Positions 32,601 to 35,600 of a stretch of DNA of 64,000 nucleotides are shown piece by piece. The stretch is from Nitrospirales bacterium (GTDB lineage Bacteria > Nitrospirota > Nitrospiria > Nitrospirales > UBA8639). A program made the position numbers. Within the stretch, counting starts at the first letter, position 1; each line of letters opens with the position of its first letter. The stretch is taken from assembly GCA_963422365.1 (NCBI GenBank), contig OY729426.1, positions 128,001-192,000 on the forward strand, in the 5' to 3' direction.

Positions 32601-35600
32601 TCGAAGCACAGGCAGCGTGAGGCTTCCCCGTTTATAGACCTTGCAGACACGATCCAAGGTTACCATAGACACCGATGCCCCTTCTCGAGTCCGGTACGGT
32701 GCGATTGAGATTGTGGAGGCTGCCTTGTCATGACGACTCGCGCGATCCTCTATCACATATCACATGATTAAAACATCCAACAACACAAGGAAAAAACTTG
32801 ACAGGGATGCGGGTGGTTCCTAGGGTTTTCCCAAGCTTCTCACCTCAATCCACATACCATGAAAAGCATGACCTCTCGATTTCTTCGCCGTCTCCTACAC
32901 ACCGTGTTTCCCATGAATTGTCGCATGTGCCACAATGCCCTCGGGGATGACCCCATTCCCTTCTTTTGTCAACCCTGCTGGAACCATATTACTCCTATTC
33001 TTTCGCCGACCTGCCCTCGTTGTTCTTACCCCTTTCCTTCTCCGGATTCGCTATCCCATAGTCCCAGGCATGTGTGTGGATCTTGTCGAAAACACCCTCC
33101 AGCCTATAACCAAGCGTGGACGCCTTATGCCTATCAATCCCCATTGAAGGAGGCCATCGGTTTCTTGAAGTACTACGGAAAAACGCAATTAGCCCCATCG
33201 CTTGCTCAACTGATGGCCCAGGCGACTCCCGCCCCGACGAACATTGATGCGATTATTGCGGTCCCGTTACACCCCGATCGACTCAGGGAACGGGAATTCA
33301 ATCAAGCCCTCCTGTTAGCGTACCATTTGGGCAGACAATGGAATCTCCCCGTTCTCACCAATGTCCTCAGCCGAACAAAGCCTACCCAACCACAAACGTC
33401 CCTCACGCGACGAGAGCGTTTAAAAAATCTTCGAAAATGTTTTTCCGTGACGACTCCTTCCGTCATTGAGGGGAAAACCATCTTGGTCGTGGATGATGTG
33501 TTCACCACGGGAACCACGGTCAATGAATGTGCCAAAGCGCTAAGAAAGGCCGGAGTTCACGCCGTCTATGTTCAAACCCTGGCCAGGATAGTAAGCTGAC
33601 TCCTCGTAATCTCGAGTGGCGTGAAACAAAAAGATGATGTACCCGGTCAGCCTGCCTCCGCCCGTGCGGAGAGAGGAAAGAGAGAAGAAGCCTTCCTTGG
33701 CGTCAAGGCTAGGCGAAAAGAATTTCTTGACTTTGTAGATGGTTTTCTCTAGCCTAAACACCTGATTTTCGGTGTCCACCGTGGACCCACGGCGGTGAGA
33801 TCTACGGCGGGCTATAATGGAAGAGCCCCATGTTTGCCGGACAATATCACTGTAAACTCGACGAAAAAGGTCGATTCATCCTTCCGACTCCCTTGCGCGA
33901 GCAATTGGAGGGCGAGGGAGATCGCGTGATTTTCGTCAAAGGGCAAGAACTTCCGTTGTCAGCCTACTCGGTTCAAGAATGGGAGAAAGTCCTCACGCGC
34001 GTCAAAGAGACATTCAATGAAGAACAAAGTCGGCTCTTCATGCACTTTGTCGTGGCTGAAGCCGCATCTTCTGAAATCGACAAGACGGGCAGAATCCTTA
34101 TTCCCGGCCGGCTGAGAAAAATCATCCCGCTGGAAGACGATTTGGAAATCGTGGTCGTGGGGATGTATCACCGATTGGAGATCTGGAATCCTTCAGAATG
34201 GCGCCGCTACCTCATGAAGCATGGTGAGCAATTGGAAGAAAATCTTGGGAAAATGCTCAACCTTCTCTAACCGAGGTCGCCAAAGCCCATCCTCCGGCGA
34301 ATCGTTGACACGCTCTGCGAATTGCACCTGCGTCCTCCTCGGACCGACAGGCAGGCCTTCTTCAACACGTTTTGAACAACCGTCGTTCCAACGGTGAATC
34401 ATCCAAGTTGACGGATGTCTCTGTTTGGCTGAGGTCTCAAATTTCACGGAAGCCTGCCATTGACGCTTCATCAAGGGCTCGAAAGAAACACCAGTGGCCC
34501 AGCCTATCCCCTGACGCCTTCTCCCATGCAACGCATTTCTCCCTGACCAAGAACGCCCTTTCAATGACCTTACCCATTCCGCCCAGCATCAACCGACAAT
34601 ATGCCACGGTCAATGGACGCCGAGTGTTGTCGGCAACGGGGCGTCGCTACAAACAGACGATCGGTCAATTGCTCATGACAACCGGTGCCACCTCTTCCGC
34701 CAAGTGGGACACTTTCTTGCACACGGCACAAGAACAGTACCTGACACTGACAATTTATTTTTATTTTCCGACACTATTACGACGAGATCTTGACGGTGGG
34801 CTCAAAATCGCTCAAGACGCCCTATGTGAAGCCATGAGCCTCAATGACAATCGAATTATCGAAATCCACCTGTATAAGTCATTAGATCGAGACAATCCCC
34901 GACTTGAGTGCACCCTGGCCTTTACGACTCCGCGGCCGGAGATTCGCCAACACTCCGCGGCCCGTCGCTCCAACCGAACCCTTGCCACCCCTCTTCGCAA
35001 CGCTTCAAGGCAGGCCCGAGATAAGCAGATTCCGCGTTAATACGGGATCTCTTCATCAACCAGTCCCAATGCTTAATTCCCAATTTCTCATTCAGATTGA
35101 CCAGACGCTGATGAAAAGGCTAGAATTTTTTTGACTTGAATCGTCTTTGGCAAACCTCCTCGGATGGATACCACGACACTCTCAGAAGAGCTACAAGACG
35201 CCGGGTTGCCGGAGCAGCCGGCCAAGCAGATCACCAGGGCGTTTCAGGATCAGCAATCCGAACGTCTTGAACAGTTTACGACAAAACGGCATTATCCTGG
35301 CTGTTCTGAAATTTCATAATTCTTAATTGAAGACCATTCAAGTCCTTATGCGTTCTCTCCCTTCTACCATGGTGATCTTAACCGTCACGGCTAGGCCCTG
35401 CGACAACGCCTGGATTTCAGCATGGAGCACACCGGGCATGCGTACCCGATTATTCTGGCTTATCAGTCTTGTGCTTGTAGGAACCTGTTATGTTCCGGAA
35501 CACGTTTCAGCCAATCGGATCCTCTTCAACCCGCAACAGAAGTTGCAGCTTCAACAAGCAGAGAAAGTTTTTATCAAGGCTCTTGCGCTGACGGAAAAGG

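Follow-up and report, generated by a model that had tools for sequence, protein, structure and literature searches.

A chromosomal RusA-family gene behind mraZ, the likely Holliday-junction resolvase of the RuvC-less Nitrospirales

The mraZ-rusA locus

The window, a stretch of 64,000 nucleotides from the one contig of a Nitrospirales genome that is 98.6% complete, carries on its forward strand a RusA-like gene, the only RusA of this genome. Directly 5' of it lies mraZ (33830..34270, +; Pfam MraZ, E = 4.4e-30), and further upstream a comF/gntX-family gene (32859..33599, +), a neighbor that is kept in three of the four families of the order (f1, to which the genome belongs, f2, and f3) but not in f4. 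The wider neighborhood is one of housekeeping genes (pyrD, comF, miaB, trkH, and a class II ribonucleotide reductase), and the base composition around rusA is ordinary. An earlier note on this DNA had described the gene as sitting near mraZ and as conserved in the order. This is borne out, as mraZ immediately precedes rusA in all 64 main-copy loci. No locus that was read shows a linkage of rusA to ruvA or ruvB.

The mraZ gene of the window is the only one in its genome, and a sole copy is likewise present in each of three f2/f4 genomes that were checked. It stands away from the rsmH-ftsL genes of the dcw cluster, whereas five outgroup genomes keep the order mraZ-rsmH-ftsL; the sister mraZ sequences are 26-32% identical to that of the window. 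Upstream of mraZ there is a candidate σ70-type promoter (33727..33755, +), with TTGACT as its -35 element, a 17-nt spacer, and TAGCCT as its -10 element. The sequence CTTGAC recurs in 47 of the 64 regions upstream of mraZ-rusA; the candidate is not among the promoters listed by a consensus scan. From the sequence, it seems that mraZ and rusA would be co-expressed from a conserved σ70-type promoter, so that the gene would not be cryptic like that of E. coli. The E. coli rusA is described as a silent prophage gene, which is activated by an IS insertion (PMC1636454), while the Nitrospirales rusA is a fixed chromosomal gene throughout the order.

The rusA coding sequence was first called as 158 codons beginning at the ATG at 34564. 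That the open reading frame is real and RusA-like has held up, but the length has not. Most homologues encode Ile, Leu, Val, or Phe at the position of the codon at 34564, and upstream of it the reading frame stays open for 85 codons, from 34309. Consequently, this ATG is judged to be internal, and the protein should therefore have about 222-240 aa. The first near-cognate start, a TTG at 34372, would give a full reading frame at 34372..35040 (+) and a protein of 222 aa; translation may in fact begin as much as about 20 codons 5' of this TTG. The added N-terminal extension (34309..34563, +) is basic, rich in Arg, Ser, and Pro, and coding: its frame is open for at least 72 codons in 34 of 34 loci of the genus (a set that excludes three with a shortened extension), while of the two shifted frames one contains stops in all 34 loci and the other in 26. 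It evolves fast (dN/dS 0.63 among the genus loci), and it is absent from family f4 and from two second copies of the gene that are considered below.

Structure and active site of the RusA protein

Several comparisons place the protein in the RusA family. Within the reading frame 34564-35040 (+), residues 4-117 of the 158-aa call match Pfam RusA with an E value of 1.9e-6; the score against PF05866 is 28.9 bits, above the curated cut-off of 22.8, and the match spans positions 1-122 of the 124 in the profile. The NCBIfam model for the enterobacterial enzyme, PRK09786, matches with an E value of 2.4e-8 and 34.5 bits. Because this model asks for more than 200 bits, the protein represents a distant subfamily rather than an orthologue of the E. 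coli type. In the PDB it matches E. coli RusA (1q8r; E = 3.3e-7, about 26% identity). An AlphaFold2 model of the core, computed from a 28-row alignment, has a pLDDT of 93, and a Foldseek search with this predicted model returns at E <= 0.001 only RusA chains, seven in all, with TM scores of 0.71-0.78. Public databases already name these Nitrospirales proteins 'RusA family'.

The nuclease core (34564..34920, +) corresponds to residues 1-119 of the 158-aa call, and its dN/dS within the genus is 0.15 (524 pairs), indicating purifying selection. It is followed by a basic, variable C-terminal tail that ends, with the stop codon, at 35040 (34921..35040, +). The protein shares with E. coli RusA (prophage DLP12; 1Q8R, 2H8C, 2H8E; PF05866) the fold, the PPS-N loop, and the residues R69, D70, D72, K76, D80, and D91; it differs from that enzyme in having an extra helix (residues 45-57) and basic tails. 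A zinc-finger module is not seen in it.

The catalytic residues, which had previously gone unchecked, were aligned to 1q8r, and the equivalences are numbered on this alignment. They fall in a short segment (34783..34848, +), in which R74 (34783) is equivalent to E. coli R69, D75 (34786) to D70, D77 (34792) to D72, K81 (34804) to K76, D85 (34816) to D80, and D95 (34846) to D91. Thus the equivalents of the catalytic D70, D72, D91, and K76 and of the DNA-binding R69 are all present. All six residues are invariant at 66 of 66 loci from the four families, a set that includes two identical rows and many close kin; D75, D77, K81, D85, and D95 are invariant in 28 wider relatives as well.

Two other positions differ. 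The counterpart of E. coli N73, G78 in the window, is Gly in 63 and Ser in 3 of the 66 loci; N73 is described as needed for optimal activity, with a minor role in catalysis and DNA contact (PMC1636454, PMC10956419). The counterpart of D90 is N94, and Asn is found there in all 66 loci. On the latter residue the sources diverge: the introduction of PMC1636454 calls D90 critical, whereas its results place the cation site at D70/D72/D91, and the review PMC10956419 lists D91 as catalytic. D91, whose equivalent is also the invariant one in the 28 wider relatives, is taken here to be the probable catalytic residue. The presence of Gly or Ser in place of N73, and of Asn in place of D90 throughout, nevertheless counts against a housekeeping role for this enzyme. 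By analogy with E. coli RusA, the protein would act as a homodimer that depends on Mg2+ and cuts four-way junctions symmetrically, with a nick in each of two like strands at the crossover, yielding two nicked duplexes.

Loss of RuvC in the Nitrospirales

The claim that this genome has ruvA and ruvB, but no ruvC, withstood closer searching. A profile search of the genome finds no RuvC at E <= 10. Unfiltered six-frame searches of it with local profiles, those for RuvC made from 32 Nitrospirota sequences and those for RuvX from 8 Nitrospirales ones, give nothing below E 0.46 for RuvC or below E 2 for RuvX. The idea that this genome contains an overlooked, divergent form of either protein was accordingly rejected. 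Across the order RuvC is found in 1 of 151 genomes, and this single match is weak, phage-type, and surrounded by phage-like genes. A RusA homologue, on the other hand, is present in 149 of the 151: the genome under study and 63 of 64 others in f1, 65 of 65 in f2, 16 of 17 in f3, and 4 of 4 in f4. The two genomes in which it is missed are fragmented assemblies (200 and 490 contigs) that lack the adjacent mraZ as well.

The earlier note had left aside the RuvC status of other Nitrospirota, and thus whether there had been a swap at all. A sample of 221 genomes from the phylum (59 Nitrospirales and 162 others) now supports a swap. RuvC is present in 160 of the 162 genomes outside the order, which represent 24 families and include both sister families in the same class (4 of 4 genomes). 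RusA of the Nitrospirales type shows the complementary distribution; it occurs in 59 of 59 Nitrospirales, and among the 162 others there is one spurious match (E = 0.007, with 3 stops). RusA of any kind, as recognized by Pfam, is found in only 9 of these 162.

The chromosome bears the corresponding scar. The order yebC-ruvC-ruvA is seen at 28 of 32 outgroup loci, which had been selected for holding ruvC, whereas at 51 of 51 Nitrospirales loci yebC adjoins ruvA with no ruvC in between. The yebC-ruvA gap at these loci is 0-478 nt, with 47 of them at or below 152 nt, and it measures 29 nt in the present genome. The four longest gaps were considered as possible sites of a decayed ruvC; they give no tblastn match and have stops in nearly all frames. 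In Nitrospirales, then, ruvC has been cleanly excised from yebC-ruvC-ruvA.

The acquisition of rusA and the disappearance of ruvC fall on one branch, and what is seen across these genomes reflects a single event in one clade rather than 151 independent ones. The features that characterize non-orthologous displacement of the RecU type are all seen here: complementary presence and absence, ruvC gone from its operon, and RuvAB kept. The best reading is an order-wide displacement of RuvC by RusA. This clade-wide displacement, in which a chromosomal RusA takes the place of RuvC and RuvAB stays, is real and unusually clean.

Other junction-processing proteins

The genome has ruvA, ruvB, and recG. 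Among Nitrospirales, RuvA is found in 148 of 151 genomes and RecG, at a strict threshold, in 145 of 151; RuvB is present in 40 of 41 genomes of family f1, and ruvB follows ruvA in most f2-f4 loci. A gene that lies between ruvA and ruvB in f2 was considered as a substitute resolvase and rejected, as its product looks exported, is Cys-rich, and has no Pfam match.

The near-universal RuvX/YqgF nuclease had been described as missing from the genus and from a third family and present in two others, and the larger sample agrees: it is found in 0 of 65 f1 and 0 of 17 f3 genomes, but in 64 of 65 f2 and 4 of 4 f4 genomes. The gene order in f2 is alaS-ruvX-mltG, and in the genome under study alaS lies about 100 nt from mltG, marking a ruvX scar. 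RecU, Hjc, and EndoVII were not found in this genome, the one that was searched for them. YraN is present in it; however, RuvC-bearing control genomes match YraN as well, so that YraN does not track the loss of RuvC. With both RuvC and RuvX missing (and RecU, Hjc, and EndoVII absent from the one genome), RusA is the sole recognized resolvase candidate in f1 and f3.

These genes bear on the suggestion that RusA has a side role, in fork or flap processing or as a backup, and that junctions are removed instead by RuvX (in f2 and f4), by YraN, by an unrecognized nuclease, or through RuvAB/RecG migration without a canonical cut. YraN, the RuvX of 68 of the 69 f2/f4 genomes, and the loss of N73 would all fit such an arrangement, and a cell with RuvAB and no known resolvase has been described in Borrelia (PMC2779866). 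In addition, Chloroflexota seem to hold RuvC and the same RusA subfamily together (see below). Yet RuvC and RuvX are both missing from f1 and f3, YraN also accompanies RuvC in the controls, and rusA was gained on the very branch on which ruvC was lost. A side role is thus quite unlikely. As observations, the presence of YraN, RuvX in f2 and f4, and the Chloroflexota with RuvC do count against displacement.

Origin of the Nitrospirales RusA

The nearest relatives of the Nitrospirales RusA outside the order are chromosomal genes whose products are 37-51% identical to it. Where these carry a name, it is Anaerolineae, Thermomicrobiales, or Chloroflexota; most are nameless. They share the signature RRDxDGGLK...D-x-R and have housekeeping neighbors (homoserine dehydrogenase, FBPase, FtsH, CobT, and argininosuccinate synthase), but no mraZ, yebC, or ruv neighbors were found at their loci. 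In a quick tree the Nitrospirales genes group with this cellular outside clade at an SH-aLRT of 93; the tree is built on 136 columns with 44 of its 85 branches open, and it is silent on the direction of transfer. RusA proteins of phages and viral contigs are about 25-35% identical to those of Nitrospirales. In the ESM Atlas the search gave RusA clusters only, Nitrospirota first and viral ones next, with no taxon for the outside clade. All eight Chloroflexota rows examined in Table S1 of PMC3403352 have RuvC. Consequently, the subfamily probably coexists with RuvC there and may have another task; no characterization of it was found in a literature search.

Two f1 genomes contain a second copy of the subfamily, with 53-54% identity, beside primase, clamp, HTH_17, and transposase genes. 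The subfamily therefore also travels on mobile-looking DNA. The idea of a domesticated prophage gene, as first proposed, thus stands in part. The second copies do lie on such an element, and they alone combine phage-like neighbors with patchy spread; the main rusA shows neither, its closest relatives are chromosomal, and phage RusA proteins are distant. It is fair to keep the label 'domesticated' for the Nitrospirales gene.

Could mraZ-rusA be simply the remnant of a mobile element, or a pair resembling antitoxin and toxin (an AbrB-fold regulator with a nuclease), with the loss of ruvC a coincidence? The second copies, the divergence of mraZ and its detachment from the dcw cluster, and an excisionase-type HTH_17 gene that precedes mraZ in most f2/f3 loci would be in keeping with this. 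However, the gene is single-copy, at a fixed locus, and under purifying selection in four families, its surroundings in the window are of housekeeping character and ordinary composition, and where RuvAB is kept, an enzyme that cuts the junctions is still required. Such a remnant or pair is most improbable.

Comparison with known systems

Absence of RuvC from a member of this group is already in print: Table S1 of PMC3403352 (2012) scores Ca. Nitrospira defluvii as lacking RuvC and RecU and having RuvA and RuvB, and the paper leaves 27 RuvAB-only genomes to an 'unknown resolvase or alternative system such as RecG-RusA'. An assignment of RusA was not found in print; the literature search, which mostly did not extend to subscription papers, yielded no paper that assigns RusA to Nitrospirales or describes an order-wide swap. 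Other cases of RusA in place of RuvC may already be given in Sharples 1999, Sharples 2002, Aravind 2000, and Ingleston 2000.

Among known systems, a parallel is RuvAB-RecU of Firmicutes/Mollicutes, in which RuvC has likewise been replaced clade-wide by a resolvase that is unlinked to ruvAB, with yebC beside ruvAB (PMC3403352, PMC1193525); there, however, the cutter is RecU, which the present Nitrospirales genome lacks. Aquifex aeolicus, which the earlier note named as a precedent, does have RusA without RuvC (PMC10956419; Table S1 of PMC3403352), but the precedent differs because Aquifex is scored in PMC3403352 as having no RuvA or RuvB at all and RecG only, whereas Nitrospirales keep all three. 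PhiKZ-like jumbo phages, too, are reported to show a complementary distribution of RusA and RuvC (PMC7824862), although these are phage genomes, and Nitrospirales are a cellular order with RuvAB.

A model for junction resolution in Nitrospirales

Overall, RusA is probably the housekeeping resolvase of Nitrospirales. Its family, fold, catalytic set, purifying selection, and fixed locus, the complementary distribution, the ruvC scar, and the retention of RuvA, RuvB, and RecG are the points that are directly supported. In the Nitrospirales ancestor, a RusA gene of the cellular subfamily common with Chloroflexota would have become fixed behind mraZ; ruvC would have been deleted from the yebC-ruvC-ruvA-ruvB operon, with RusA taking over the housekeeping job.

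How RusA would work beside RuvAB is a particular problem. The RuvA of E. coli keeps RusA from acting on junctions, and ruvABC rus-1 cells with RuvA are UV-sensitive (PMC2265524); the combination of RuvAB, RecG, and RusA is UV-sensitive there because RuvA shields junctions from RusA. Suppression of ruv defects by E. coli RusA is reported to need RecG (PMC1636454, PMC5055574). Since Nitrospirales keep RuvA, RuvB, and RecG together, they must escape an E. coli-type RuvA block if RusA is their resolvase; the retention of RuvA in nearly every genome, when E. coli RuvA blocks RusA in vivo, is an observation that counts against RusA in this role.

One possible escape is a hand-off, rather than a resolvasome like RuvABC. 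RuvAB and RecG would move the junction, and RusA would cut once RuvA has left; in competing for DNA, RusA may be aided by its additional basic tails. This is the least certain step of the model. Nevertheless, that RusA displaced RuvC and acts by hand-off or RecG-assisted cutting is, on balance, the favored account.

Alternatively, RuvAB and RusA might be coupled, physically or kinetically, like RecU-RuvAB in Bacillus, with the basic N-terminal arm and a motif within it docking on RuvA/RuvB. Such coupling would explain why RuvA and RuvB remain intact order-wide, even though a RusA working uncoupled would be blocked by the RuvA of E. coli. The motif, [IVLF]R-x2-3-S[YF]R, is found in 14 of 18 f2/f3 extensions, compared with a mean of 0.04 in shuffled sequences, a count to be read knowing that the pattern was derived post hoc from these same extensions and that 6 rows are near-copies. 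Furthermore, the Glu of the RuvA acidic pin is replaced by Asn or Asp in 17 of 51 Nitrospirales, but in only 1 of 30 outgroup proteins. This pin reportedly modulates RuvABC processing, and the RuvA changes are weak hints of adaptation. Whether Nitrospirales in particular had lost the octamer helix of RuvA was also considered, and no such loss was seen; comparison with outgroups reveals no telling change in that helix. Against coupling, rusA is unlinked to ruvA and ruvB, the extension is missing in f4 and shortened at three loci of the genus, and the RusA of the window has a degraded form of the motif. In addition, E. coli RusA is described as independent of other recombination proteins (PMC1636454). 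A predicted complex of RuvB, RuvA, and RusA with its extension from one f2 genome, run without controls, scored 0.01 against a mark of 0.32 and has no bearing either way. A coupled resolvasome seems, then, rather unlikely.

A bolder version would make RuvAB-RusA a third kind of bacterial resolvasome, in which a RusA that came from a Chloroflexota-type lineage gained a basic docking arm for cutting RuvAB-held junctions and the RuvA acidic pin was relaxed after the loss of RuvC. The cutter would be under MraZ, a regulator of division whose gene moved out of the dcw cluster on the branch of the swap, and this would tie resolution to the cell cycle. This proposal is speculative and must be counted as unlikely.

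Conclusions

With displacement of RuvC by RusA as the preferred reading, these results name a candidate for the missing junction cutter of an order of nitrite oxidizers that includes Nitrospira, a gap that was a bare '-' in the 2012 table. In two families, f1 and f3, RusA is the only recognized resolvase candidate, the near-universal RuvX/YqgF having been lost too. Nitrospirales would thus be a natural example of a cell with RuvAB, RecG, and RusA, which bears on how a junction passes from the motor to the cutter. The interest lies in the conflict with E. coli genetics, and an escape from the RuvA block is directly testable.

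The RuvC partners and RuvX in Nitrospirales

The only RuvC match within Nitrospirales is a phage-type protein (L002:1295-1759, a locus from another genome or metagenome), and it is surrounded by phage-like recombination genes. A second nuclease gene, ruvX/yqgF, has been cleanly deleted: it is present in 0/65 of the family to which this genome belongs (f1) and in 0/17 of another Nitrospirales family (f3), and in the present genome the site of the deletion is the alaS-mltG junction (contig positions 1806650-1806780). YqgF, a protein linked to the maturation of 16S rRNA, is elsewhere near-universal.

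In f1, ruvB is parted from yebC-ruvA, with 155 kb between them in the present genome (contig positions 983075 and 1138584), unlike the three other Nitrospirales families (f2-f4), in which ruvB still lies near yebC-ruvA. Within RuvA itself, the Glu of the acidic pin is changed to Asn or Asp in 17 of the 51 Nitrospirales proteins (L141, L168-L184 and others), compared with 1 of 30 from RuvC-bearing outgroup Nitrospirota, and the change is spread over several separate Nitrospirales lineages.

In f2, a conserved gene for a Cys-rich protein of ~160 aa is inserted between ruvA and ruvB (L185:2710-3213; also in f2 loci among L138-L167 and L183-L187). CGxCP motifs recur in this protein, which matches no Pfam family and is probably exported.

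Other copies of RusA

The regions L119:1687-5408 and L120:315-5382 each contain a second RusA gene, of the same subfamily as the main copy and without its Arg/Ser/Pro-rich N-terminal extension. In both loci this gene lies in what looks like a mobile element, together with a DnaG-type primase and a beta-clamp paralogue; an AAA ATPase and a transposase are nearby in L119, and DUF3768 and HTH_17 in L120. A large and highly conserved chromosomal RusA subfamily is also seen in metagenome loci (L197-L276), in proteins named as Chloroflexota, many of which share ~80% identity. These genes are surrounded by housekeeping genes, and this subfamily probably occurs beside RuvC.

The mraZ-rusA locus

At L092:3103-3330 and in most f2 and f3 loci, comF is separated from mraZ-rusA by an HTH_17 gene of the excisionase type and a small zinc-ribbon gene. 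The HTH_17 gene ends only a few bases before mraZ, which suggests that it forms one operon with mraZ-rusA. Elsewhere in the window, a DUF6978/DUF1828-DUF1829 gene pair is present on the minus strand (26492-27462).

The only mraZ of the present genome (window 33830-34270) lies outside the division (dcw) cluster; rsmH-ftsL (rsmH at contig position 1202338) is without mraZ, in contrast to five outgroup Nitrospirota, with whose MraZ proteins its own shares only 26-32% identity. This mraZ appears to have been relocated or replaced on the same branch on which rusA was gained.
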